The position numbers and the translations under genes were made by a program. Under the pieces are notes generated by a model. The model saw nothing but the letters and a program-made list of their open reading frames with translations, was not told where the DNA came from and ran no database searches. Shown here one piece after another: positions 11,790-43,670 of a DNA stretch of 64,000 bases (position 1 is the first letter of the stretch; each line of letters opens with the position of its first letter). This stretch comes from Patescibacteria group bacterium (lineage in GTDB: Bacteria > Patescibacteriota > Patescibacteriia > GWA2-46-9). The DNA lies in assembly GCA_041675205.1 (NCBI GenBank), contig JBAYUF010000003.1, positions 111,025 through 175,024 on the forward strand, written 5' to 3'.

Positions 11790-11912
11790 AAAAACCTTAA
11801 GGACAACCCGTCGGGTTTTCCTTAATATTCCTTTCCTTCAGCACAGGTCGCTCGTTTCTTCTTCCGCGCAGTAGCAGGCTTTGCCCTACCGCCACCGTGC
11901 TCAGAAGAAACT
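11790..11912 (+). repeat. conserved ~120 nt tRNA-downstream element (copy A), homologous to 18601-18725
   Basis: The shared core TTCCTTAATATTCCTTTCC plus flanking blocks CCCG.TC, AGGTCG.TC and CCGCCACCGTGCTCA(G/C)AA match at about 70% identity by eye. Confidence 0.5.
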
Positions 11913-11926
11913 CGCTATGATTTGAA

Positions 11927-12493
11927 ATGAACAAAAAAATTACTCTATTCATATTCGTAACTCTTGTCGCTCTGCTCATTGTGGGTGTGAGCTATTTTTT
12001 ATTTACAAAAGAAGTGGTTAAAGTTCCGGATGAAACGCAGCCGATTGTAAATGTGCCAGTGGAGTCATTACCGCCAGAGCCGGTAATGGTTAGCGAAGAG
12101 AGTACTGTTTCTGTTGCTACAGATAAGTCAGTCTATGCACTTGGAGAAACAATTCCAGCCATGGTTACAAATAATACCGAGTCGGCTATATGGCTGAGTA
12201 CCGCTTGCGGTATGCCTATAACGTTATTGAGGAAGAATGGCGAGACGTGGGAGCCTCATGGCGCATACCCTACAAAACGTTGCGCAGCCACCGCACCAAG
12301 TGTCGAATCTGGCGAAACGGTTAGTTACGTCTTGGATTTAGAAAATATGTACGCCCACACTTTTTTCAAAATTGAGCCTGGAACCTATAAGGTTGAAGTG
12401 GAGCATACGATTGTTGACGGAAAACTTTGGCCTGTAGCAAATTTTAGTTTTTTGAAGTCACAATCAGAAGAATTTAGAATTGTTCAGAAGTAG
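11927..12493 (+). CDS. hypothetical exported/membrane-anchored protein
   Basis: An N-terminal TM/signal segment (ITLFIFVTLVALLIVGV) is present. No known motifs. Confidence 0.5.
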   Translation: MNKKITLFIFVTLVALLIVGVSYFLFTKEVVKVPDETQPIVNVPVESLPPEPVMVSEESTVSVATDKSVYALGETIPAMVTNNTESAIWLSTACGMPITLLRKNGETWEPHGAYPTKRCAATAPSVESGETVSYVLDLENMYAHTFFKIEPGTYKVEVEHTIVDGKLWPVANFSFLKSQSEEFRIVQK

Positions 12494-16063: not shown

Positions 16064-16211
16064 GCATTCTTTTCTGTCTTCAAACGATAGTGAGTTTTTC
16101 TGAGCACGGCGGCGGTAGGGCATCGCCTGCTGTCGCGCGGAAGAAAAACGAACGGCCTCATGAGAAGGGAGGGAGTAAGGGGGGAACCGGAAGGTTCACC
16201 CTTGAGCTTTT

Positions 16212-18361: not shown

Positions 18362-18435
18362 TGGGGGATCGTCTAATGGTAGGACAGCGGCCTTTGAAGC
18401 CGTGAATCATGGTTCGAATCCATGTCCCCCAGCCA
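18362..18435 (+). tRNA. tRNA-Gln (anticodon UUG), CCA encoded
   Basis: Acceptor TGGGGGA/TCCCCCA, anticodon loop CTTTGAA, T-arm CATGG-TTCGAAT-CCATG, discriminator G, then CCA. Confidence 0.85.
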
Positions 18436-18960
18436 AAAAATCTTTAACCCCTGGCGGGTTGGAGATTTTTTGTTTGAGAGATATGATGGATTCGAACCAG
18501 AGGCGAAGGGGTTCCGCCAGAGGCGGACAAGCTAGAGAAGCGATTGACGATGGTTCTAGTCCCGTGAAGCGGGACGGAATCATGTCCCCCAGATATCTTT
18601 AAGAAAAACCTCCCGGTCTTCCTTAATATTCCTTTCCCTCGGCTAAGGTCGTTCAGAAATCATTTCACACGACAGCGAGCTAAGCTCTACGGCCGTCGTG
18701 CTCACAATTTCTTCACTCTAGTAAGACAGAACAATCTAAATAGTTTTAGGGAAGTAAACGAGAGTTGTGACCGATTCCCCCAGCCAAAAATCCTTGGCCC
18801 CCATTGTGGGGCTGAGGTTTTTTGATTGTAGGAGTATAATGGATTCGAACCAGGCGAAGTGGGTCCACCAGAGGGGCACAGGCCAGAAAAGCAGACGACG
18901 ATAGTTCTAGTCCCGAGAAGCGGGACGGAATCATGTCCCCCAGCCATCTTGAGATAGGTT
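18436..18960 (+). repeat. array of degenerate tRNA-Gln-derived repeats (pseudo 3' ends TCCCCCAG(CCA) at 18585, 18776 and 18936), two ~180 nt units plus a copy of the ~120 nt tRNA-downstream element
   Basis: Unit 1 (~18446-18592) and unit 2 (~18796-18946) align along their length. Each ends with GCGGGACGGAATCATG^TCCCCCAG, which is the tRNA-Gln 3' part with the T-arm deleted. Each contains an inverted T-arm-like GGATTCGAACC. Unit 2 starts with a second TTCCCCCAGCCA. Confidence 0.7.
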
Positions 18961-18986
18961 ATTGCGAACGAGGTGTATAGATAAAT

Positions 18987-20204
18987 ATGAATTTGGTTAA
19001 TAAATTTTTTTTAGACAAAGTAAAGCAAGATGAGCTAGAAATGGTACTCTTGTCTTATTTTGGGAGAGGAAATGGTCCACATGAAGGCAAATCTGTATAC
19101 CATAAAGAAGACGATGACAGTTTTTCCGTAACTATTTATTATGGTTCGAGCGGAGAGATCCAGTCAATAGAAAATGGTTCAAAACTTAGCGAGAGAGATA
19201 TAAATGAGATTTTACAGAAAATATCTGATGAGTTAATCGGCGCTCAGGAAGTAGTCGTCGCTAGGGATATTTGTTTTGTAACAGGTTCTAAGGTTGAAGA
19301 GTATTTTACATACAAGGATATATTTCAAATACTGCCCATGCCGTCTGATGCTCCTCAAATACAAAACCAAATGTGGGGGCATCACCCAATTTTATTAGAA
19401 TACAAATATGTTTCATCAAAAAATACTCTAGTAAATGGGTTTAGAAAAAGTAAAAAATTCAGAGAATTAATCACGCTGTTACATTTATTGTCGCAAAGAT
19501 TTTATGGTCCTTCTAGATTTGGTCAGTCTGACTGGGTAGTTATTAGTAATGAAGATATAGAAAAGACAACCAGCGAATTTAAACAGATGGGCTATTGGTA
19601 TAGTAAAAAATTCCAAACCGATAATTCATTTTCATCGACAAAAGGTATAAAAGAGGTTGAATTTGGAAAAAGTAAAAGCAATGAGCTGACTTTTATTGAA
19701 GACGCTGATAAATTGTTAGATATTATTTTTATATTGGATCATGACAGATACTCAAAATTCATCACTTCCTGCTATTGGTTTTATACAGCAAACGAGATCT
19801 GGAAAACTTCGTATTCGGTTTCGTATGTTTGTTTGGTAACGAGTATCGAATGTCTTATGAGCAATGTAGAAAAGTGTGAGTGCGGATCAGCTCTTACAGA
19901 TAAATCTATAGAGAAATGCGAAATATGCGGTGAACCGAAATATAGGATAGGAAAAAGTTTCAAAGACTTTCTAGAAAAATATTCCAATGAGGAATACTCT
20001 AAACTATCCAAGGAAGAGAAAAGTTATATTTACAATATTAGATCCACCATGCTTCATGGAGAAAGAGTATTTACTAGAGACTTTGAACCAATGGGATTCT
20101 TGGGATATCAAAAATCATACGAAAGCGCTTTTCATCGCACGATTTCAAGTTTAGTCTTCGGTGCTTTGATTAACTGGCTTTCTGATAATAAAAAGGTAAA
20201 GTAG
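18987..20204 (+). CDS. hypothetical protein with CxxC...CxxC zinc-ribbon and possible HEPN-like Rx4H motif (defence candidate)
   Basis: Contains CECGSA...CEICGE and, near the C-terminus, NIRSTMLHGE (R-x4-H). AT-rich codon usage. A good RBS GAGGTG precedes the ATG. Confidence 0.5.
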   Translation: MNLVNKFFLDKVKQDELEMVLLSYFGRGNGPHEGKSVYHKEDDDSFSVTIYYGSSGEIQSIENGSKLSERDINEILQKISDELIGAQEVVVARDICFVTGSKVEEYFTYKDIFQILPMPSDAPQIQNQMWGHHPILLEYKYVSSKNTLVNGFRKSKKFRELITLLHLLSQRFYGPSRFGQSDWVVISNEDIEKTTSEFKQMGYWYSKKFQTDNSFSSTKGIKEVEFGKSKSNELTFIEDADKLLDIIFILDHDRYSKFITSCYWFYTANEIWKTSYSVSYVCLVTSIECLMSNVEKCECGSALTDKSIEKCEICGEPKYRIGKSFKDFLEKYSNEEYSKLSKEEKSYIYNIRSTMLHGERVFTRDFEPMGFLGYQKSYESAFHRTISSLVFGALINWLSDNKKVK

Positions 20205-20309
20205 TGTCGCATTTGTCGCTTTGAATCCGTTGCGAAGAGCCTCAAGGTGTTATAATAAAGAACATCAGAAAACACTTTTCTGCTTCCTTCTTGTAATAGA
20301 ATCATTTAT

Positions 20310-21032
20310 ATGAAACACCAACTTCTTTATAAGGATCTCGCTCGTTATTACGATCATATTTATTCATTTAAAAATTACGAGGCTGAGACCAAGGAACTGC
20401 GTAGTCTTATTGAAAAATATAAGCGTTCCAAGGGAAGCGACATGCTCGACATTGCCTGTGGTACCGGGAAACATTTAGCCTATTTCAAGCGTTGGTATTC
20501 GTGTATTGGGGTTGATGTTAATGAGGGTATGCTACGGGTGGCCCGGAAAAAGATTAAAGGTGTCGTTTTTAAAAAAGGTGACATGACGACACTGAAACTC
20601 AATCGGACTTTTGACGTTATTACCTGTTTATTTAGTTCAATAGGATATGTTCGCACCTATGCAAACCTAGGAAAGACTATCATTGCTTTGTCTAAGCATT
20701 TGAAGCCAGGTGGTGTGCTTATTATTGAACCCTGGTTTACGCAAAAAACATATCGGCCAGGCTTACCGCATATGACGACATACAGTTCCCCGGATATAAA
20801 AATTGCGAGACTTAATGTAAGTGAACGTCGTGGCAGTGTGTCGGTCATGGATATGCATTATCTTGTCGCCGAGCGGGGGCATAAGGTGAAATATTTTGTT
20901 GACCGCCATGAACTCGGCATGTTTGAGCCAGATCGTTTGATAGGTCTAATGCGAAAGGCAAACCTCGAGACGCGCCTTGCAAAGTCAAAACTGATGAAGG
21001 ACCGCGGGTTGTATGTTGGCGTTAAGGTTTAA
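20310..21032 (+). CDS. class I SAM-dependent methyltransferase (TylM1/DesVI-like small-molecule methyltransferase)
   Basis: The N-terminal Y..YD.IY...Y..E pattern and SAM motif I (LDIACGTGKH) resemble sugar N,N-dimethyltransferases. Confidence 0.65.
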   Translation: MKHQLLYKDLARYYDHIYSFKNYEAETKELRSLIEKYKRSKGSDMLDIACGTGKHLAYFKRWYSCIGVDVNEGMLRVARKKIKGVVFKKGDMTTLKLNRTFDVITCLFSSIGYVRTYANLGKTIIALSKHLKPGGVLIIEPWFTQKTYRPGLPHMTTYSSPDIKIARLNVSERRGSVSVMDMHYLVAERGHKVKYFVDRHELGMFEPDRLIGLMRKANLETRLAKSKLMKDRGLYVGVKV

Positions 21033-21072
21033 AAAATTTGTATTAGGCGTATTGGCGTGCATTTAAAAAAAT

Positions 21073-21819
21073 ATGGATGAAGAAATAAAGATCAATGAAT
21101 TCAATAAAATTTTAGAGCAGGCAAAAAATGACGATAGGGTTATCGGGCTAATTTTAGCTGGCGGACGCGGCAAGGGCATGTTCACAGAAAATTCTGATTA
21201 CGACGTTGCTATAATTACAACCGATGAATCGATTTTAGGTGTTAAGGAAGATTACAAAGGCACACAAGATATTATTGATATAGGGGTATTATCGATATCT
21301 GAATTTAGAATATATGCAGCAGTAGGAACAGCGGAAGACTGGGATAGATATACTTACGCACATATAAAAGCTCGCATTGATAAAACAGGAGAAATCCAAA
21401 AGATAATTGATGAAAAAGGTATTTTGCCGCAAGAGCAAATATCAAAAGTAGCAAAAAAAGCTTTGTGTGGTTATCTAAATTCTTTGTATCGTGCTTTAAA
21501 AAATCACAGAGACGGAAACGAATTTGCCTCGCGTTTAGACGCTTGTGAATCTTTGCCTTGGTTACTAACCTTTCTCTTTGCAGTTGAGGGGCGAGTTCGT
21601 CCGTACAATAAGTTTCTGAAATGGGAACTTGAGAACTATCCATTAAAGAATCTACCAATCTCATCTGAAGATTTTTTAGCAAAAATCGAATTAATTATCA
21701 AAATAGGCGATATTGAAATCCAAAAAGAATTTCATAAAATTGCAGAAGAAATTGCAGTAAAAAATGATTGTGTTGATGTGATAGACGACTGGGCAGGATA
21801 TTATTTTGCTAGAGAATAA
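21073..21819 (+). CDS. nucleotidyltransferase-fold protein, ANT(6)/AadK-like
   Basis: The N-terminal minimal NTase motif GGRGKG...SDYDVAII and the overall length match aminoglycoside 6-adenylyltransferase-like proteins. Confidence 0.5.
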   Translation: MDEEIKINEFNKILEQAKNDDRVIGLILAGGRGKGMFTENSDYDVAIITTDESILGVKEDYKGTQDIIDIGVLSISEFRIYAAVGTAEDWDRYTYAHIKARIDKTGEIQKIIDEKGILPQEQISKVAKKALCGYLNSLYRALKNHRDGNEFASRLDACESLPWLLTFLFAVEGRVRPYNKFLKWELENYPLKNLPISSEDFLAKIELIIKIGDIEIQKEFHKIAEEIAVKNDCVDVIDDWAGYYFARE

Positions 21820-21825
21820 TTAAGC

Positions 21826-22475
21826 ATGACACTCCTTAAATTCGAAAACATTCCTATACATGAATGCGGAGACGAACTCGTTAATCTAGGCGAATACGAC
21901 TTCGCTCTTGAACCGGTCTATTTCAATTTAGGTTTCTCTCCGGAGCCACGTATTTTTCTTCGTAAATCAGTCGTCGACAAACTTATTGGCATACAGAATA
22001 GTCTGAACGGATATCGCTTTAAGATCTGGGATGGTTTTCGCCCGCGTTCTGTACAGCAGAAGATTTATGAAAAGTTTTGGAATGAGCTGAGTGAAGCACA
22101 TTCCGAATGGGACGAAGAAAGATTGAAGATGGAAGTTGGTGTGTTTGTCACCACGCCTAACGACCAAAACCGCATTCCTCCTCATGCCACAGGTTCAACA
22201 GTTGACCTAACGCTCGTTGACTCGGATGGTAACGAACTCGATATGGGTACGGCATTTGATTATTTTGACCAGAAGCAGCGGCTTTCTACTTTGACGAGAA
22301 TCCGGGAAACTTGACGGCAGCAAAGAATAGAAAGCTACTTCGAGAGACAATGTATGCTGGGGGTTTTGGAGGAGACAAAGACGAGTGGTGGCACTTTGAC
22401 TATGGGAATCAGAAGTGGGCAGTCGAGCTAGGTCACGCTGAAGCGATGTTCGGAGAGGCTGAAATTCCTAAATGA
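21826..22475 (+). pseudogene. VanX-like D-Ala-D-Ala dipeptidase (peptidase M15D), disrupted by a frameshift
   Basis: The N-terminal 162 aa ORF (21826-22314) carries the active site PHATGSTVDLTL and DYFD. The C-terminal conserved part (AAKNRKLLRETMYAGGF...EWWHFDY) is encoded in a different frame, 22269-22475. The shift lies between about 22270 and 22312. Confidence 0.6.
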
Positions 22476-22942
22476 GTTCCTGCATTACTTCTGAGCAAAA
22501 ATCTATGCAACCATCAAAACACCCAAAAGTAGGTTTAGGTATTATTATCGTTAATAGTGAAGGGCGTATTTTAATTGGCAAGCGGATAGGGAGTCATGCC
22601 CAAAAATATTCTATTCCTGGGGGCCACTTAGAAATGGGTGAGACATTTGAGGAGGGAGCTATTCGAGAGGTCAAAGAGGAAACTAATTTGAATATAGTTG
22701 AACCGAAAGTAATTGCCATTACTAATAATTTAGAAACTTTCAAAGAAGAAGGGGAGCACTACATTTCTGTCATTCTTCTGGCACGAAAATATACGGGCGA
22801 ATTAATAAACATGGAGCCGGATAAATGTGAAGAACTTATTTGGGTAGACCCCAAAAATCTCCCTCAGCCTCATTTTGACGCAAGCGCATTAGGAGTATCG
22901 TGCTATTTGAAAGGCAGTTTTTATAGTGGGGCTGATTTTTGA
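22472..22942 (+). CDS. Nudix hydrolase
   Basis: Nudix box GGHLEMGETFEEGAIREVKEETNL. The 3' end runs into a copy of the GGGGCTGA repeat, so the C-terminus is uncertain. Confidence 0.7.
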   Translation: MSSCITSEQKSMQPSKHPKVGLGIIIVNSEGRILIGKRIGSHAQKYSIPGGHLEMGETFEEGAIREVKEETNLNIVEPKVIAITNNLETFKEEGEHYISVILLARKYTGELINMEPDKCEELIWVDPKNLPQPHFDASALGVSCYLKGSFYSGADF

Positions 22943-22977
22943 TTGTAGGAGTATAATGAATTTGAACCGGGCGAAGG
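22926..22977 (+). repeat. third copy of the GGGGCTGA...TTGATTGTAGGAGTATAATG(G/A)ATT(C/T)GAACC...GGCGAAG element
   Basis: Near-identical to 18806-18863 over about 50 nt. Confidence 0.6.
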
Positions 22978-23065
22978 GCTTGGGAATCGGAGGCTGGCAA
23001 ATTGGGTAATCTGATCCAAATACTTTTTAGGAGACTAGTGGTGTAAAGAAAAGGGAGAAATAATT

Positions 23066-24883
23066 ATGGCCAAAATAAAAGACATTCCAAAAGTAGATCG
23101 CCCAAGGGAAAAGTTCCTACAAAAGGGCTCGGAAGCACTTTCAAAAAGTGATCTTTTGGCAATCTTGCTTGGCAGTGGAATAAAAGGGAAAAATGTAAGA
23201 CAGCTTTCCGAGAATATCATTAAAAAATTTGGTAATAAATTTTTAGATATCAAAGTGGATGATTTGCTTCAGGTCTCAGGAATAGGCCAAGCAAAAGCAC
23301 TACAAATTGTTTCTGCTATTTCTTTGGTAAAAAGATTTTACGATGAGCAAAAAAGAAGCGAAATTATAATAAAGAATCAGCAGGATGTCTTAGCCCTGAC
23401 GTACGATCTGACAGATAAGAAGAAAGAGTACTTAGTCTGTCTCTATTTAAACACGAGAAATGTCTTGATAAAAAAAGAGGTTGTTAGTGTTGGATTACTC
23501 GATAAAAGCTTAGTTCACCCCAGAGAAATATTTCATCCAGCCGTTGAATTTAATGCCGCTAGTATTATTTTAATTCACAATCATCCCTCCGGAATATCAG
23601 ACCCGAGTGAGAAAGATATTGAGATTGTTAAAAAAATATCCCAGGCTGGTGACATAATGGGAATTGCTGTAATTGATTTTGTTATTACTGCTAACAATGG
23701 GAGTTATAGTTTTTATGACAAACTACAACAAGGTAAGAAACATTTGGATTACGTTGCTGACGGCATACAAGGAACCTTATTTGATCTTTTAGAGATTGAA
23801 AAGCCGACTTATGAAATAAATGCCGAAAAGATACAAGAAAATTATTTTTATATTCCTCAAATTAAGAAGAATCACCTCCAGTTACAAAATCGGAGATATA
23901 TTGGAAGTAAGCATAAACTAATTGAATGGATTTTTTCTATAATCAATAAAGAATGCGAGAAACGAAGTTCCTTTGCTGATGTCTTTGCAGGCACCGGAGT
24001 TGTTTCGGCTGTCGCGGCTAGGCATTTTGATGAAATCATATTGAACGATTTTCTACATTCAAATTATGCAATCTATCAGGCTTTTTTTGGTAATGGTAAG
24101 TGGGACAAACAAAAGCTTGACGATATAATCAAAAATTACAATAACATCAACGGTGAAGACCTAGAAAAGAATTATTTCTCTGAAAACTTTGGCGGAAAGT
24201 ATTTCAGTCATAATTCCTCAAAGATAATTGGATTCATAAGAGAAAATATTGAGGAAAATAAAAGCAATTTAACTGATAAGGAATATTATATTCTCATTGC
24301 TTCTTTGTTGTATTCAATTGATAAGGTTGCAAATACGGTTGGTCACTACGATGCCTATTTCAAAAAGGATCATTTTGAAGACGGGTTTTTTATGAGACCA
24401 ATTGATCCAATCGAAGTAAAGAGAGTGGCTATCTTTAGAGAAGACACAAATCTTTTAGCAAAAAAAATTAAAGCCGATGTTGTCTATATTGATCCTCCAT
24501 ATAATTCAAGACAATACAGTCGTTTTTATCATGTGCTTGAGACTCTAACGAAGTGGGATAAACCAAGACTTTATGGAACGGCATTAAAACCCGAAGAAGA
24601 AAATATGAGTGATTACTGTAAGGTACGAGCAAGAGATAGACTTGCCGAGTTGGTCCGGGACTTAGATGCCAAATATCTAGTAGTGTCATACAACAATACT
24701 TACGATTCAAAAAGCAACTCTTCAAAAAATAAGATCACCCTGCAGGAAATAAAAGATATTTTAGTCTCTAAGGGTAAAACAAAGGTTTTTGAAAAAGACT
24801 ACAGGCATTTTAATGCCGGAAATACCGATTTCAAAAATCATAAAGAATACTTGTTTGTAACTACCACAGACTATGCAAAGTAA
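23066..24883 (+). CDS. RadC-like JAB/MPN domain fused to Dam-like (alpha-class) N6-adenine DNA methyltransferase (R-M methylase M1)
   Basis: Residues 1-220 carry the RadC HhH plus JAMM motif HNHPSG...SEKD. The C-terminal part carries YIGSKHKL, FAGTG (motif I) and DPPY (motif IV). The RBS is AAAAGGGAGAAAT. Confidence 0.8.
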   Translation: MAKIKDIPKVDRPREKFLQKGSEALSKSDLLAILLGSGIKGKNVRQLSENIIKKFGNKFLDIKVDDLLQVSGIGQAKALQIVSAISLVKRFYDEQKRSEIIIKNQQDVLALTYDLTDKKKEYLVCLYLNTRNVLIKKEVVSVGLLDKSLVHPREIFHPAVEFNAASIILIHNHPSGISDPSEKDIEIVKKISQAGDIMGIAVIDFVITANNGSYSFYDKLQQGKKHLDYVADGIQGTLFDLLEIEKPTYEINAEKIQENYFYIPQIKKNHLQLQNRRYIGSKHKLIEWIFSIINKECEKRSSFADVFAGTGVVSAVAARHFDEIILNDFLHSNYAIYQAFFGNGKWDKQKLDDIIKNYNNINGEDLEKNYFSENFGGKYFSHNSSKIIGFIRENIEENKSNLTDKEYYILIASLLYSIDKVANTVGHYDAYFKKDHFEDGFFMRPIDPIEVKRVAIFREDTNLLAKKIKADVVYIDPPYNSRQYSRFYHVLETLTKWDKPRLYGTALKPEEENMSDYCKVRARDRLAELVRDLDAKYLVVSYNNTYDSKSNSSKNKITLQEIKDILVSKGKTKVFEKDYRHFNAGNTDFKNHKEYLFVTTTDYAK

Positions 24884-25778
24884 AATCAAAAGATCCCCTT
24901 TGTTTTACGTCGGGGACAAGTACAAGCTAATGAAACAGTTGGCTGGTTTATTTCCAAAGGAAGTAAGCAACTTTTATGAGCCGTTTGTTGGTGGTGGAAC
25001 AGTTTTTTTAAATGTTCGTGCCGATAAATATTATTTGAATGATAATGACAAAAATCTCATTAACATACACCGGTTTTTGGTGGGAAGTTCAAATAACCCA
25101 GATGTATTTTTTAAGAATGTAGAAAAGGTAATAAAAAAGTATCGTCTATCACGATCATACAAGGAAGACATAATTCCTGTTTCATTAAAAAGAGAGTGGA
25201 AGAAAACCTATTTTGCTAGATTCAATAAAGAGGGCTACGAGAAGTTAAGGGTTTGTGTAAATAAGAATTTAAAAAATGATCCCCTGGTTCTGTATATATT
25301 GCTAATCTACGGATTCAACAGGATGTTGAGATTCAATGGAGGGGGTAAGTTCAATCTACCGGTTGGCAATGTCGATTTTAATAAAAATGTTGTTAACGCC
25401 CTAAATGAATACTTTGACTTTACTCGGAACAACAAAATAGCTTTAAGCTCGAAAGATTTTAGAAGCTATTTTGTTGGCCGAAAATATTGGGAAAACGACT
25501 TTGTTTATCTCGACCCGCCATACCTGATAACTGCTAGTGAATACAACAAACGGTGGGATCAAAAAGCGGAAGCTGACTTACTAAAAATAATTGATGATCT
25601 CGACAAAAAAGGTGTTAAGTTTGCCCTGTCGAATGTAACTCATTATAACGGTAGTAAAAATGAGTTACTGATTGACTGGATGAAAAAATATAAGACTCAC
25701 AAGATAGTGAGCAATTACATCAGTTATCACAATAACGGCAAGAAACAGATTAAGGAAGTGTTGGTTACCAATTATTAA
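24873..25778 (+). CDS. Dam-like N6-adenine DNA methyltransferase (R-M methylase M2)
   Basis: Contains YVGDKYKL, EPFVGGGTVFLN and DPPY. The gene overlaps M1 by 11 nt. Confidence 0.8.
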   Translation: MQSKIKRSPLFYVGDKYKLMKQLAGLFPKEVSNFYEPFVGGGTVFLNVRADKYYLNDNDKNLINIHRFLVGSSNNPDVFFKNVEKVIKKYRLSRSYKEDIIPVSLKREWKKTYFARFNKEGYEKLRVCVNKNLKNDPLVLYILLIYGFNRMLRFNGGGKFNLPVGNVDFNKNVVNALNEYFDFTRNNKIALSSKDFRSYFVGRKYWENDFVYLDPPYLITASEYNKRWDQKAEADLLKIIDDLDKKGVKFALSNVTHYNGSKNELLIDWMKKYKTHKIVSNYISYHNNGKKQIKEVLVTNY

Positions 25779-25782
25779 ATAT

Positions 25783-27318
25783 ATGAAAACAAAAACAAGA
25801 GAATCAGAATATAAACCATTATTGTTTACTACCACACTCAGAAATCCGGAAAGGCTCAAGTGGTTTTTAGGAGTCCTTAAGGACTATGACGGTAAAGTTC
25901 TCGATGATCAGTTGGCGGAAGAAATCTCCGGAGAAGTCATTAGAGTTGGCTTGTATAAACCGACAAAGATAAGTGCTGCTATAAAGAAAAAAATTGAAGC
26001 AAAAGAGCCATTGTCCGATTCCGAAGTCATAAAGATTCTTGAGGACAATCCGCAGAATCACAAAGAGGCCGGTTTTAGTAAGGGCTGGGCTTCTCGATTT
26101 GATACCTGGTTTAAGATCGCCAAGGAGCTTGGCTTTGTCTATTACAAAAATGGTGAAAAAATCAGATTTTCTGATATCGGATTAAAATTAGTTGATAATG
26201 AACATCCCGAATTTGAACAGCAGGCTTTTCTGAACGCCTTTGTAAAATACCAAAGTAATAGTCCATTTAGACGAGTCCTCAACGAAAATGCGCCACTCAT
26301 TTTATTGCTCAATGTTATCAATGAAGTAAACGCGGATAAGGATTTAAACGGGACCGGAATTTCTAAATTAGAATTACCGCTGATTATCTTTTGGAAAGAT
26401 GATGACGCGCAGGGACTATACAAGCTTATAAAGAAAATCAGAAAAGAACACGGCTATACCCCGAGTTGGGAAGTTATTGTTGGCATTTGTGCTAACCAGA
26501 TTATGAAGGGTGATTTCAAAAAGTTTAATCCGAAGTCAATAATGGTTGACTATCCGGATGAATTCATCAGGAAAATGAGGTTGACCGGGCTGATCTCATT
26601 AAGAGGAGCTGGTCGTTTCGTTGATATAAACAGAAACGAACAATCCAAGGTTGATTATGCTCTAGCTAAATATTCTCAATATGAGAAGTATGCAACGGAA
26701 GAAGAGTATTTTGAGTACATGTCGACCGTGGACAAAAACCTAATCTCGTTTGTTGCTAAACCGGTAAGTGTTGGTGAAAGAGATGCGTTTTTGGCAAAGT
26801 GGGTTGGTATTTACCCTTGGAACAAAATTAAGGCCGAAATGTTAAATCTTGCAAATAAAAAGCTCACGAAAGATGATGTTTTAAAATACCTATCAAATCC
26901 CGTCAGACTTGAGTTTTTAGTGTCTTTGGCCATCAAATCAAAATTTCCAAGTGTTAAGGTGATCCCCAATTATCCTTATGATGACGAAGGAATTCCGACC
27001 TCAACAGCTGGAGGTGTTGGAAACAAAGGTGATATCGAATGCTTCGAAGATGTTAAGGGTATATTGGTTGAAGTAACTATGTCTGAAGGACGTATGCAAA
27101 CCATGATGGAAGTATGGCCGATCTCAAGACACCTGGAAGAATTCAAAAAAAGCGCACCAGATTCAATGTGTTATTTTGTGGCACCTAGCATATTCAAAGA
27201 TTCGGAAATGCAGATTAATTATGTCAAAGAAAAAAAGAATCTTTCAATCTTGCCGAAAACAATTGATGAATTTTTGACTCACATAGAGAGTAGGGAGACT
27301 CTATACGCGGCTACGTAA
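25783..27318 (+). CDS. type IIS restriction endonuclease, AlwI family (N.BstNBI/MlyI/PleI/AlwI-like)
   Basis: Several blocks match N.BstNBI from memory: PLILLLNVINEV...ISKLELPLIIF, RKMRLTGLISLRGAGRFV, and the C-terminal GNKGDIECFEDVKGILVEVTMSEGRMQTMMEVWPISRHL (PD-D/ExK-like). It lies directly downstream of the two methyltransferases. Confidence 0.7.
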   Translation: MKTKTRESEYKPLLFTTTLRNPERLKWFLGVLKDYDGKVLDDQLAEEISGEVIRVGLYKPTKISAAIKKKIEAKEPLSDSEVIKILEDNPQNHKEAGFSKGWASRFDTWFKIAKELGFVYYKNGEKIRFSDIGLKLVDNEHPEFEQQAFLNAFVKYQSNSPFRRVLNENAPLILLLNVINEVNADKDLNGTGISKLELPLIIFWKDDDAQGLYKLIKKIRKEHGYTPSWEVIVGICANQIMKGDFKKFNPKSIMVDYPDEFIRKMRLTGLISLRGAGRFVDINRNEQSKVDYALAKYSQYEKYATEEEYFEYMSTVDKNLISFVAKPVSVGERDAFLAKWVGIYPWNKIKAEMLNLANKKLTKDDVLKYLSNPVRLEFLVSLAIKSKFPSVKVIPNYPYDDEGIPTSTAGGVGNKGDIECFEDVKGILVEVTMSEGRMQTMMEVWPISRHLEEFKKSAPDSMCYFVAPSIFKDSEMQINYVKEKKNLSILPKTIDEFLTHIESRETLYAAT

Positions 27319-30727: not shown

Positions 30728-30834
30728 AGAGTGTTACACTGTAACAGGAAAAATTTAACCTATCTTTTTGTGCTTATCAGAAACAAGTACGCACAAAGAC
30801 GAAATTATTATTCAGTCGTGATTGTCATTGTCTA

Positions 30835-31449
30835 ATGGATTCCAAAGTCACAACGTTCATATTTGACTGCTTTGATGTCTTATTGGCACCAGTTGTTACC
30901 CGCTGGTATAGAGAAAACAGTGCCAAGTTAGGCTTCGTTGATGAAAACCTACAAGACATTTTACGGCAGTTTGACCTCGCGCTTTTATCTGAAGCCGATC
31001 TGATGGAGTATTTACTGAAGTATCCAGGCGTAAACTCTACAGTTGCAAAACTTCAAAGCGAAATTGATGCCCATCTCGAAATTGATGAGGCACTTGTAGT
31101 AGTAATTAAAAAGTTAAAAAACAAAAGCTTCAAGACCGCCTTATTGTCGAACGCCAACCATTCTTTCTTTGAAAGAAAAGTATATTCAACATATCCAGAG
31201 TTCAAAGGACTATTTGATGAGATAGTCATTTCTTCTGCTGTTAAGATGGTCAAGCCAGACAAAAATATCTATTTGTATACTCTTGCCAAAATTAATTCAA
31301 AGGCGGAAGAGTGTTTATTCATCGATGACAACAAAACCAACGTTGCCGCTGCGGTTGCATTAGGCATGAATGGTTACGTCTATACAGACTACAAATCCTT
31401 TGCAGATTTCATTACTGAATCAGGTATCGAGCTTGAGGCGGGCGTATGA
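30835..31449 (+). CDS. HAD-superfamily hydrolase (phosphatase-like)
   Basis: Motif I FDCFDVL, motif III K, and C-terminal DD (FIDDN) are present. Confidence 0.7.
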   Translation: MDSKVTTFIFDCFDVLLAPVVTRWYRENSAKLGFVDENLQDILRQFDLALLSEADLMEYLLKYPGVNSTVAKLQSEIDAHLEIDEALVVVIKKLKNKSFKTALLSNANHSFFERKVYSTYPEFKGLFDEIVISSAVKMVKPDKNIYLYTLAKINSKAEECLFIDDNKTNVAAAVALGMNGYVYTDYKSFADFITESGIELEAGV

Positions 31450-43385: not shown

Positions 43386-43670
43386 TTGAAACTGGAAATC
43401 GGAAAGAAGCCAACACCAACCCTCGTCGTGAGGCCGCTCGGGCAACTGAAGCCTGGAGACTGTTTCAGGTACCACGATGGTGAGTGCCTCGAAACGCTGC
43501 TGCTGGATGAAAACCCCGCCGTTTTCATGGTCGTCCCAGGCACTCCCGCTGATGCTGATCGAGTTACCGTCTTTCCCCTCGACGGCAGGTCGGGAGTCAG
43601 CAAGAAAGACAGTGACCGCAAGGTCGTGCTGGTGGAGGCGACCGTGGTCCTGCGCGACGCTCGACGCTGA
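43386..43670 (+). CDS. hypothetical small protein in GC-rich patch
   Basis: A TTG start 8 nt after a consensus AGGAGG RBS. The 94 aa product is followed by a strong rho-independent terminator. Confidence 0.5.
   Translation: MKLEIGKKPTPTLVVRPLGQLKPGDCFRYHDGECLETLLLDENPAVFMVVPGTPADADRVTVFPLDGRSGVSKKDSDRKVVLVEATVVLRDARR

Follow-up and report, generated by a model that had tools for sequence, protein, structure and literature searches.

The window, i.e. the whole 64-kb stretch of DNA analysed here, contains a tRNA-Gln gene followed by two and a half copies of a ~140–145-nt module; a copy of the tRNA tail closes each of the two complete ones. The features are as follows, with L008 designating a distant Patescibacteria contig that carries two such units:

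18362–18435, plus strand: tRNA-Gln(UUG), intact, with encoded CCA, the target or anchor (ARAGORN; Rfam tRNA model, 64.9 bits)
18436–18472, plus strand: terminator T1, with the tRNA trailer as ascending arm and unit A as descending arm (inverted repeats I1, I9)
18456–18496, plus strand: unit A left module, with terminator descending arm, predicted −35 TGGAGA (18460) and −10 TATGAT (ends 18487) (promoter scan)
18497–18551, plus strand: unit A middle, including hairpin GTTCCGCCAGAGGCGGAC (75% identity to L008 unit 2)
18552–18592, plus strand: unit A right module, with GGTTCTAG, hairpin GTCCCG-TGAAG-CGGGAC and GGAATCATGTCCCCCAG (displaced tRNA 3' end, fragment i) (motifs, repeats)
18593–18740, plus strand: X trailer element, the 'spacer' between units (alignment A4; nhmmer E = 1e-37 to 1e-41)
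18769–18786, plus strand: degenerate tRNA 3' fragment ii, GACCGATTCCCCCAGCCA (repeat family D6; motif search)
18787–18824, plus strand: terminator T2, formed by the trailer and the unit B descending arm (terminator scan, 10 pairs then a T run)
18808–18849, plus strand: unit B left module, predicted −10 TATAAT at 18835–18840 (95%, 41/43, identity to L008 unit 1)
18850–18902, plus strand: unit B middle (77% identity to unit A versus 43% to its cross-genome counterpart)
18903–18946, plus strand: unit B right module, with AGTTCTAG, a hairpin and GGAATCATGTCCCCCAGCCA (displaced tRNA 3' end, fragment iii) (motifs, 19-mer search, fold)
18947–20204, plus strand: ApeA-like module, with left end TCTTGAGATAGGTT and an ORF at 18987–20204, docked exactly at the pseudo-CCA end of unit B
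18947–43400, plus strand: variable island, from the tRNA-Gln stack to the conserved block EamA-holin_4_2-DUF192-Na/H exchanger (GC, Pfam, synteny with L005 and L014)
22927–22980, plus strand: unit C, a left module alone, with terminator descending arm, TATAAT at 22952–22957 and ~25 nt more (families D2, D15; nhmmer E = 8e-13)

The original prediction had reported that TCCCCCAG recurs at 18425, within tRNA-Gln, and at 18585, 18776 and 18936, and all the motifs it named lie where it placed them; the first occurrence (18425–18432) is part of the tRNA gene itself. The two units it proposed could be aligned (18501–18599 with 18852–18950, 84% identity), the block period being exactly 351 nt (repeat families D1, D2 and D6), and its inverted T-arm-like fragment, ATGGATTCGAACCA at 18486 and 18839, is complementary to the T arm, without mismatch, over 14 nt (I9, I10). 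Its third copy of the 5' core was also recovered, as unit C, which overlaps the stop codon of a Nudix ORF (22472–22942). The 19-mer GGAATCATGTCCCCCAGCC occurs at three sites with at most 3 mismatches, against 0.01 expected from shuffles; both the direct tRNA-tail repeats and the two units exceed chance. The repeat structure is not an assembly artefact, because contigs of two independent assemblies (JGI 3300037067, starting in the T1 loop, and Logan SRR6484325, starting in the tRNA T arm) have the same arrangement base for base, with 100% identity to the window over the stretches covered.

Each left module consists of a terminator descending arm and a sigma-70-like promoter, which together form a degenerate inverted copy of the tRNA 3' end; that of unit A matches the tRNA 3' end on the minus strand in an HMM search (E = 0.006). 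T1, the tRNA 3' end and the unit A left module form a ~45-bp imperfect palindrome, positions 18405–18502 fold at −48 kcal/mol, and a minus-strand terminator was also called at the T1 hairpin. The promoter scan also picked out this promoter in L008, with TACAAT as the −10. Partial copies start at or near the terminator loop (unit C inside the loop, L008 unit 2 in the descending arm after GG), and both lack the ascending arm. Unit C, whose left module is 86% identical to that of unit B, is joined to the end of the Nudix ORF, from where it reads into a RadC-MTase/AlwI R-M operon; in L024 this operon is 96% identical and has an HTH_17 gene upstream instead of unit C.

The generic right module is composed of GGTTCTAG, a GC hairpin and CGGAATC(C)ATGTCCC, i.e. 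the last ~17–20 nt of the tRNA with a hairpin in front; in unit A it folds as an extended stem-loop (z = −3.5). The original prediction had read the tail copies as the tRNA 3' portion with the T arm deleted between CATG repeats, which is probably wrong. The equivalent positions in L008 read GGAATCCATGTCCC and GGAATCCTGTCCCC, which matches the tRNA from the 3' half of its T loop onwards (GAATCCATG...). Since the deletion model does not predict the extra C in L008, the fragment probably corresponds to the final ~20 nt of the tRNA, from which the window copies have lost one C, and GGTTCTAG and the GC hairpin precede it. The X trailer (~140 nt) also occurs after tRNA-Lys (11790–11930) and tRNA-Gly (16211–16075, minus strand), and an orthologous copy was found in L005/L007 with nhmmer.

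Functional tRNAs or known ncRNAs, an outcome that the original prediction had considered, were not found in the units with Rfam or ARAGORN. The Rfam tRNA model (E <= 10) matched the real gene alone, and ARAGORN at a lowered threshold found nothing in units A, B and L008 unit 2, even with the hairpin deleted, nor did it find a tmRNA. Among the Rfam 15 families, the units matched only miRNA-type models at chance level, caused by the palindrome, and nothing at the gathering threshold. When the unit body was compared with tRNA-Gln over the two-thirds at its 5' end, similarity was suggestive for L008 unit 2 only (1/500 shuffles), the alignments of A and B being ambiguous. A minus-strand tmRNA, a permuted tmRNA or a YrlA-like tRNA mimic, starting with CTGGGGGA and ending with the T-arm-like GGTTCGAATCC, was rejected, as the T stem is not conserved in L008 and unit C and no model matched. 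A small protein was likewise rejected: SD-like AGGAG and ATG are conserved, but the peptides (17–50 aa) differ in sequence, and DNA of hairpin 1 that is identical at 19/19 positions lies in different reading frames in unit A and L008 unit 2.

It is possible that the units are instead transcription units for structured RNAs derived from tRNA-Gln (sRNAs or 5' leaders of island operons). They would have arisen by tRNA gene duplication and been retained for a role at the RNA level, for instance in processing, stability or insulation. The sigma-70-like promoter is conserved, its −10 variants (TATAAT, TATGAT, TACAAT) all keeping A2 and T6; each unit is insulated from tRNA read-through by an upstream terminator, and downstream genes are directly entered from units B, C and L008 unit 2. 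The right-module stem-loop occurs in 4/4 units with three stem sequences, including a compensatory U-A to G-C change, and this retained pairing would fit RNA function as well as a DNA hairpin. In addition, the 19-nt stretch GTTCCGCCAGAGGCGGACA, which contains hairpin 1, is identical at 19/19 positions between unit A and L008 unit 2, and unit A folds as a cloverleaf-like four-way junction (z = −3.9). However, the interior is the least conserved part (43% in the B type), hairpin 1 (GTTCCGCCAGAGGCGGAC in unit A) is broken in unit B, L008 unit 1 has a long, unrelated hairpin in its place, the cloverleaf was not recovered in L008 unit 2 and no unit has its own terminator. The empty Rfam (E <= 10) and ARAGORN searches, which included hairpin-deleted sequences, and the absence of units from L005, a close relative of L008, also speak against such RNAs, and their function would not explain why the promoter spacer falls within the best-conserved stretch. 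We consider this explanation unlikely.

In L008 both unit types lie behind a tRNA-Gln identical to that of the window, in reversed order (B-like, then A-like). FtsX identity is 83% between L005 and L008 and about 52% between either of them and the window, and the region upstream of the tRNA could not be aligned between the window genome and L008. The left modules are nevertheless 90% (A type) and 95% (B type) identical between the window and L008, the 42-nt B-type module having a single differing position (41/43 aligned columns), whereas identity falls to 75% and 43% in the middle and to 78% and 62% in the right module. The right modules of the window's two complete units, A and B, are 91% identical to each other, above the cross-genome identity of either; this likeness shows local homogenisation, which blurs their history. 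The units are present in L008 and absent from L005 despite 83% FtsX identity, and thus their distribution is patchy. FtsX-anchored look-ups of more distant relatives (L003, L012–L016) did not find them; the tail in L012 weakly resembles unit A (8/1000 shuffles reach its score), and L014 has an empty site, FtsX-tRNA-Gln-EamA. L012 and L013 share the same FtsX protein and have different tRNA-Gln 3' halves, which indicates that recombination is ongoing at this tRNA.

Searches for further copies were negative: exact and gapped pattern scans of GTDB representative genomes gave 0 hits, those of JGI metagenome contigs only 3 chance matches in unrelated high-GC bacteria, a scan of IMG/VR with 5 patterns 0 hits, and blastn against phage and plasmid collections no match to the units. 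Only two genomes have units; scanning the GTDB representatives, the JGI metagenomes and IMG/VR for exact patterns added none.

These data also bear on an explanation that involves no mobile element at all, namely that the quasi-palindromes of the terminator and the T arm provoked snap-back or a template switch during replication (of the tandem-inversion-duplication type), which, followed by unequal crossing-over, built the units. Lineages would later have exchanged the whole variable region through homologous recombination, with tRNA-Gln and EamA as anchors. At its two ends each unit carries the same block of tRNA 3' end plus trailer, once inverted and once direct, hairpin-joined to the tRNA; the 351-nt period is exact, the homogenisation of A and B within the genome is a sign of active local recombination, and no recombinase gene was found in the window. 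On the other hand, both left-module types are 90–95% conserved, in the other order, in a genome whose FtsX is only 52% identical, which means that a single local accident would need to have been exported intact. Simple snap-back leaves the middle and the hairpin insert unexplained, and the partial copy at a separate junction (unit C) demands further events. We regard this scenario as rather improbable.

The stack opens an island that ends near 43.4 kb by synteny. The distance from FtsE-FtsX-tRNA-Gln to EamA varies from direct adjacency in L014 through 2.6 kb in L005 to ~25 kb in the window; the tRNA-Gln 3' flank is an insertion hotspot, in agreement with the repeated integration at this site that the original prediction had proposed. 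GC content is 0.34–0.44 in 19/21 kb-sized intervals between 19 and 40 kb (0.459 and 0.519 in the other two) and 0.42–0.54 in the flanks. The ~25-kb (24.5-kb) island contains mostly low-GC, co-oriented accessory and defence genes, including R-M, an ApeA-like HEPN protein, several Nudix proteins, methyltransferases and a phosphotransferase-like protein. No tRNA-Gln fragment was found past 18946, the far end of the island thus being unbounded by one. No integrase or recombinase ORF was found in the part of the 64-kb window covered by Pfam scans (14–63 kb) and by precomputed gene calls (~7.2–18 kb), nor in the 10 kb downstream in L023. An integron-like cassette array was rejected: Pfam gave no integrase, and the gene boundaries from 18 to 45 kb share no attC-type repeats. 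An IS200/605 PATE, an IS110 bridge-RNA end and a group IIC intron remnant were also rejected, as the neighbourhood has neither a transposase nor TnpB or RT and diagnostic motifs were not found.

The ApeA-like module is docked at the pseudo-CCA end of unit B, as its homologues are at genuine tRNA ends. The same junction, together with the 5' end of the gene, survives as a decayed remnant in L005, directly behind the genuine tRNA-Gln CCA; in L017–L019 both lie at the CCA of tRNA-Ser, followed by a 218-aa ORF and a large serine recombinase. Homologues of the ApeA-like HEPN gene at 79–83% (L017–L019, L022) have no units upstream, and the idea that the units provide it with a type III toxin-antitoxin RNA was dropped.

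Two parts of the original prediction, the hotspot and the displaced tRNA ends, are therefore upheld: the X trailer follows one tail copy and the left end of the ApeA-like module follows another. Its primary reading, that the units are functionless scars left by random deletion in decayed, full-size, integrase-bearing islands, did not fare as well. Displaced tRNA 3' fragments beside an island fit the classical picture (PMC4383910), and homologues of the 405-aa ORF travel with a large serine recombinase. However, independent random deletions would not yield collinear ~140-nt units of two types, with 90–95% identical ends, in two distant genomes; serine-recombinase elements do not duplicate their target, no integrase was found in the window, and the large island lacks a distal tRNA fragment. 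The units, with 90–95% conserved ends and variable interiors, form a discrete and conserved family of elements with two subtypes, and decay is very improbable as their origin. The alternative that the prediction itself offered, a small repeated element piggy-backing on tRNA fragments, is closer to the evidence.

We propose that short insertion modules without an integrase gene are stacked in the 525-nt stretch, behind the tRNA-Gln(UUG) 3' end where the ~25-kb island of this Uhrbacteria-like Patescibacteria genome docks, and we would put this at about an even chance of being correct. The proposal draws on four features: ends that are conserved, interiors that vary, tRNA-tail repeats on the flanks and a patchy occurrence. 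Non-autonomous mobile DNA is expected to combine conserved termini with variable interiors. In a complete module (~140 nt), the left end pairs with the trailer of the tRNA or tRNA-like 3' end before it, which completes a terminator hairpin, and its predicted sigma-70-like promoter points away from the tRNA; the middle is poorly constrained, and the right end has the GC hairpin between GGTTCTAG and CGGAATC, ahead of the last ~17–20 nt of tRNA-Gln. We infer the following route. A circular copy could recombine with the tRNA in Campbell style through the shared 3'-terminal identity, either site-specifically with a recombinase in trans or by homologous recombination. Insertion would regenerate an intact tRNA 3' end and terminator and move the previous 3' end downstream, and repeated events, together with recombination between modules, may have produced the order tRNA, A, X trailer, B and, formerly, C. 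Displaced pseudo-ends would remain open to further elements that dock at tRNA ends, and one of them has demonstrably received another mobile module, the ApeA-like one; the module promoters would read into any downstream cargo. It should be noted that neither a circular junction nor a unit-less allele of the same strain was seen, which counts against such modules. The same holds for the missing integrase, the presence of units in only two genomes, the hairpin pairing kept through different stem sequences, the local homogenisation of the right modules and the far end of the island without a tRNA fragment. The Logan contigs break inside the tRNA, a hint of variants.

A more far-reaching and quite unlikely version is that the modules are a dedicated landing-pad system, in which self-propagating copies of 'tRNA 3' end + terminator + outward promoter' may multiply safe docking sites for tRNA-end recombinase elements and transcribe promoterless cargo. 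If true, it would be an integron-like platform for acquisition and expression, built on a tRNA gene in reduced-genome Patescibacteria without a cognate integrase at the locus.

tRNA genes are well-known hotspots for islands, and to our knowledge the described cases are almost all kilobase-scale, integrase-bearing and from cultured phyla. The locus analysed here is a hotspot of this known kind in unusually miniature form and without an integrase gene, and it illustrates how defence and accessory genes build up at one tRNA in a streamlined CPR/Patescibacteria genome. Should the modules turn out to be mobile, or to serve as secondary attachment sites, the growth of islands without an integrase in these organisms would be accounted for, and such hotspots could be sought in metagenomes by their sequence signature.

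Several known systems share features with this locus. Tandem inversion duplications at quasi-palindromes, known from Salmonella, have a direct-inverted-direct arrangement with junctions at hairpin-forming sequences, as here; in our case, however, the segments measure tens of nt instead of kb, they recur in conserved form in more than one genome, and additional sequence that is not duplicated separates the copies. Like the integron platform (attI and Pc), the locus has a fixed recombination point followed by a predicted promoter that reads into co-oriented small accessory genes, but there is no intI, there are no attC-like repeats at gene boundaries, and only three promoter modules occur in 25 kb. 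Among tRNA pseudogenes and fragments mis-annotated as tRNAs (PMC9897764), partial tRNA 3' sequences adjoin the parent gene as they do here, whereas our units score as no tRNA at the thresholds tried and carry conserved non-tRNA modules.

The closest parallels are found among elements that target tRNA genes. A regenerated target, a displaced fragment and a preference for T-stem sites have been described for tRNA-targeting islands (PMC4383910). As in Islander-type islands with a tyrosine integrase (PMC4383910), an intact tRNA is followed by direct 3'-end copies (three fragments downstream of tRNA-Gln) that start in the T-loop/T-stem region, at a hotspot for low-GC islands and with serial fragments as in tandem arrays. 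In contrast to them, each unit here also has an inverted tRNA-tail copy, the inserts are ~160–350 nt with neither an integrase gene nor a conserved ORF between tDNA and fragment, and the far end of the 24.5-kb island has no fragment. Integrase-less, att-flanked elements that undergo tandem accretion have been described as CIMEs (PMC6323972). These are kilobase-scale derivatives of ICEs and IMEs in Firmicutes whose cis-mobilisation was shown experimentally, whereas the units here are ~140 nt, with no parent element found and with presumed mobility. Units A and B resemble CIMEs in being bounded by att-like repeats, the tRNA tails, with no genes inside; their integration genes were lost or never present, and they are stacked at the primary site with other elements docking beside them.

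The units lie behind one of four tRNA genes in the window, which is itself part of a 180-kb metagenomic contig (ENA ERZ27247358, k141_2283382):

18362-18435, + strand: tRNA-Gln(UUG), directly after ftsE-ftsX

The FtsX protein is labelled 'Patescibacteria group bacterium' at NCBI, and its closest relatives are from Candidatus Uhrbacteria. Taken per kb between 19 and 40 kb, GC content mostly lies at 0.34-0.44, with two values above this (0.459 and 0.519); the flanks have 0.42-0.54. A block of EamA, holin_4_2, DUF192 and Na/H exchanger genes restarts at 43477, and the variable region is therefore ~25 kb long. No integrase was found in the window ORFs scanned or in the downstream region of the related contig L023.

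The original prediction was that copies of the tRNA-Gln 3' end recur behind the gene, and every motif it listed was found in its place. The tail copies at 18585, 18776 and 18936 were confirmed, with a 19-mer matching three sites against 0.01 expected from shuffles. Two ~140-nt units, A (18456-18592) and B (18808-18946), do align with each other as proposed (18501-18599 versus 18852-18950, 84% identity), and the block of tRNA tail, terminator and unit has an exact period of 351 nt. The predicted inverted T-arm-like piece, ATGGATTCGAACCA, is in both units a perfect complement of the T arm, and the third copy of the 5' core is present at 22927-22980 (unit C, a left module only), where it overlaps the stop codon of a Nudix ORF. 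This arrangement is not an assembly artefact because JGI 3300037067 and Logan SRR6484325, two further data sets, contain contigs that match the window at 100% identity over the stretches covered; the former starts in the loop of T1, the terminator before unit A, and the latter in the tRNA T arm. In contrast, L008, a contig of the second unit-bearing genome, reads GGAATCCATG, which makes a simple copy of the final ~20 nt, minus one C, more likely than the suggested T-arm deletion between CATG repeats. In Logan SRR6484325, the ftsX contig (L002, end 2020) ends within the tRNA-Gln anticodon stem and the unit-bearing contig (L027, start 1) begins in the T arm; an assembly graph should break in this way where variants or repeats come together at the tRNA.

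Comparison with L008 divided the units into three modules. The left module (~41 nt) opens with one half of an intrinsic terminator, the descending arm; the A-rich trailer after the preceding tRNA or tRNA-like end supplies the ascending arm. The module holds a predicted sigma-70-like promoter (TGGAGA, 16 nt, TATGAT in unit A; the predicted -10 box is TACAAT in its L008 counterpart and TATAAT in the B type). At the same time, its sequence is an inverted, degenerate copy of the tRNA T arm and acceptor 3' strand, and its HMM matches the tRNA tail on the minus strand (E = 0.003-0.006). A ~45-bp hairpin is predicted for tail, terminator and left module together (-48 and -50 kcal/mol in the two genomes). 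The middle module (49-73 nt) is variable. The right module consists of (G/A)GTTCTAG, a GC hairpin and then CGGAATC(C)(A/C)TGTCCC...; the hairpin parts the T-loop halves GGTTC and GAATCC, and the tRNA 3' strand comes after. Elsewhere in the window, a weak (78%) 27-nt likeness to the promoter core (TGATTGTCATTGTCTAATGGATTCCAA, 30819-30845), overlapping the start of a HAD-hydrolase ORF, is probably due to chance.

A role of the units as sRNA or leader is a less probable but supported alternative: the predicted promoter is conserved, the same extended stem-loop is predicted for all four right modules, with an inner stem that covaries (GUCCCG/CGGGAC, GGCCCG/CGGGCC and CUCCGC/GCGGGG in three sequences), and unit A has a predicted cloverleaf-like fold (z = -3.9). 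However, the interior is the least conserved part of the unit, L008 does not reproduce the cloverleaf and none of the units has a terminator of its own. Functional tRNAs or tRNA pseudogenes were rejected, as the Rfam tRNA model matches the real gene alone, even at E <= 10 (the remaining weak matches are miRNA hairpin models, drawn by the palindrome); ARAGORN called no tRNA in the units, even with a lowered threshold and the hairpin insert deleted. A small protein was also rejected: short ORFs from the conserved ATG give unrelated peptides, and the best-conserved DNA of the units falls in different reading frames between copies. Phage and plasmid collections contained no unit match.

Related loci were collected by FtsX-anchored look-ups. 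In L014 (FtsX 44% identical), ftsX, tRNA-Gln and EamA follow one another with only ~55 nt between tRNA and EamA, an empty site. In L005-L007, from Uhrbacteria CG10 (FtsX 53% identical), 2.6 kb separate the tRNA from EamA, and units are not present in these contigs. L008 and L023 (FtsX 52% identical) have a tRNA-Gln identical to that of the window, with a B-like unit immediately behind it and an A-like unit next. More than 9 kb of defence-type genes in one shared orientation come after these (T5orf172/MUG113, DpnI, SLFN_AlbA_2 and AbiEii). FtsX is 83% identical between L005 and L008; the units thus occur in L008 and the distant window genome and not in a close relative of L008. Upstream of the tRNA, window and L008 are not alignable. 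Between them, identity is 90% for the left module of A-type units and 95% for that of B-type units; the corresponding values are 75% and 43% for the middle and 78% and 62% for the right module. Compared with each other, units A and B of the window are 91% identical in their right modules and 77% in their middles. Thus, left ends define the types, and local homogenisation occurs. Units are carried by two genomes only, and exact-pattern scans of large collections, requiring perfect matches, found none beyond these. Directly after the second L008 unit lies the T5orf172/MUG113 ORF (L008 7425-8150; L023 11425-12150). This GIY-YIG-like domain typically occurs in free-standing nucleases of the homing type that lie in phage tRNA regions; if the protein is such a nuclease, it could drive co-conversion of adjoining sequence.

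The 'spacer' behind unit A is a copy of a trailer element, X, of ~140 nt (mean identity of copies ~68%):

11790-11930, + strand: X, directly after tRNA-Lys
16075-16211, - strand: X, directly after tRNA-Gly
18593-18740, + strand: X, the 'spacer' directly after the pseudo-tRNA end of unit A
L005 4918-5022, - strand: orthologous copy of X, between tRNA-Gly and tRNA-Thr

X also follows tRNA-Gly in L005/L007 (the relative at 53% FtsX identity). The first part of X is a terminator hairpin, homologous to T1 and with compensatory changes; X also includes a CU-rich stretch (CCTTAATATTCCTTTCC) and has no Rfam match. The 14 nt behind the pseudo-CCA of unit B (TCTTGAGATAGGTT) are also found behind the genuine tRNA-Gln CCA in L005, and in alignment they are the left end of an ApeA-like module:

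18987-20204, + strand: ApeA-like ORF, 405 aa, with a distant relative labelled 'Apea-like HEPN'

No Pfam domain was detected in this ORF, and homologues (73-83% identical) occur in other Patescibacteria. The module is a decayed remnant in L005. In L017-L019 it stands directly after the tRNA-Ser(UGA) CCA (83% protein identity), next to an ORF of 218 aa and a large serine recombinase of 439 aa; there the three make up a compact element of ~3.4 kb (L017 4833-8236) that docks at a tRNA end. The same three genes are found in L022 (2410-5625). As the left end of the ApeA-like module lies at genuine tRNA CCAs elsewhere, the pseudo-tail has therefore served as, or once was, a tRNA end where another mobile module docked. 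L012 (2002-2075) and L013 (2013-2070) encode an identical FtsX, yet their tRNA-Gln sequences have different 3' halves, which indicates recombination inside this gene in natural populations. L013 has a canonical T arm, whereas the foreign 3' half in L012 (TTATCTTGGTCCGAATCCAAGCCCGGCAGCCA) mismatches the acceptor 5' strand and breaks the acceptor stem; ARAGORN did not call it as a tRNA, and it resembles either a hybrid junction of attL type or a tRNA that has been disrupted.

Homology of unit C with unit B begins inside the terminator loop; in the second L008 unit, which lacks the ascending arm too, homology begins after GG, within the descending arm. In silico removal of the ApeA-to-Nudix segment (18947-22926) joins the pseudo-tail of unit B to unit C, minus the ascending arm, which suggests that tRNA, A, X, B and C once formed an array into which cargo was inserted later. 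Unit C is followed by an R-M operon (23066-27318) with a RadC(JAB)-Dam fusion, a second Dam and an AlwI-type endonuclease. In L024 the same operon (96% protein identity) has an HTH_17 gene in front, not a unit; in the window, the left module of unit C has replaced this gene and now supplies the sole recognisable (predicted) promoter. The fusion has >5900 relatives at E <= 1e-30, and the 120 relatives listed are 75-96% identical, with names including Patescibacteria, Omnitrophota and other lineages, which points to a very widely travelled module.

Between 22472 and 39732 the island is unusually Nudix-rich, with five ORFs matching Pfam NUDIX (22472, 29712, 32364, 35244 and 39232). It also contains two SRPBCC/AHSA1 proteins, two class-I methyltransferases, an APH-like kinase, a nucleotidyltransferase, an RNase II-type (RNB) protein and a PPDK_N+PEP-utilizers protein, a domain pair that occurs in rifampin phosphotransferases. 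Nearly all genes are co-oriented, and similar arrays occur in L021 and L023. A D-Ala-D-Ala dipeptidase gene (Peptidase_M15, VanX-like; 21826-22475) is split into ORFs of 162 and 54 aa, which lie in different frames with a 4-nt overlap; the split probably reflects a sequencing error or a frameshift that made the gene a pseudogene.

The pattern behind tRNA-Gln is real, and it is both structured and conserved. The decay scars of the original prediction are disfavoured, since random decay leaves the collinear conservation of units across two genomes unexplained. Template switching at the palindromes of terminator and T arm would give the units a purely local origin, which is favoured by the direct-inverted-direct layout and by the lack of a recombinase among the ORFs scanned; however, two intact unit types would then need export to a distant genome. 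With moderate confidence, we regard the units as discrete insertion modules, non-autonomous, that use the tRNA tail for recombination and have accumulated by accretion at a hotspot, because they have conserved ends and variable interiors, are flanked by direct repeats of the target, have partial copies that lack the ascending arm and start in or close to the terminator loop, occur as two types in opposite order in the second genome, and are not present in a close relative, another relative having an empty site. Our confidence is no higher because two genomes only carry units and the wider scans demand perfect matches. We infer the recombination route through the tail, the promoter activity and the order of events from sequence comparison.

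In tRNA islands the target is regenerated and a fragment displaced, and T-stem sites predominate (PMC4383910). Integrase-less att-flanked elements are known as CIMEs, and tandem accretion is established too (PMC6323972). Unlike a classical integrase island, the tRNA-Gln locus has no integrase, tiny intervals and no distal fragment, and would therefore work like an integrase island without being one. It represents a miniature form of the known theme of tRNA hotspots and accretion, new in this form and from a phylum with few good descriptions of such elements.
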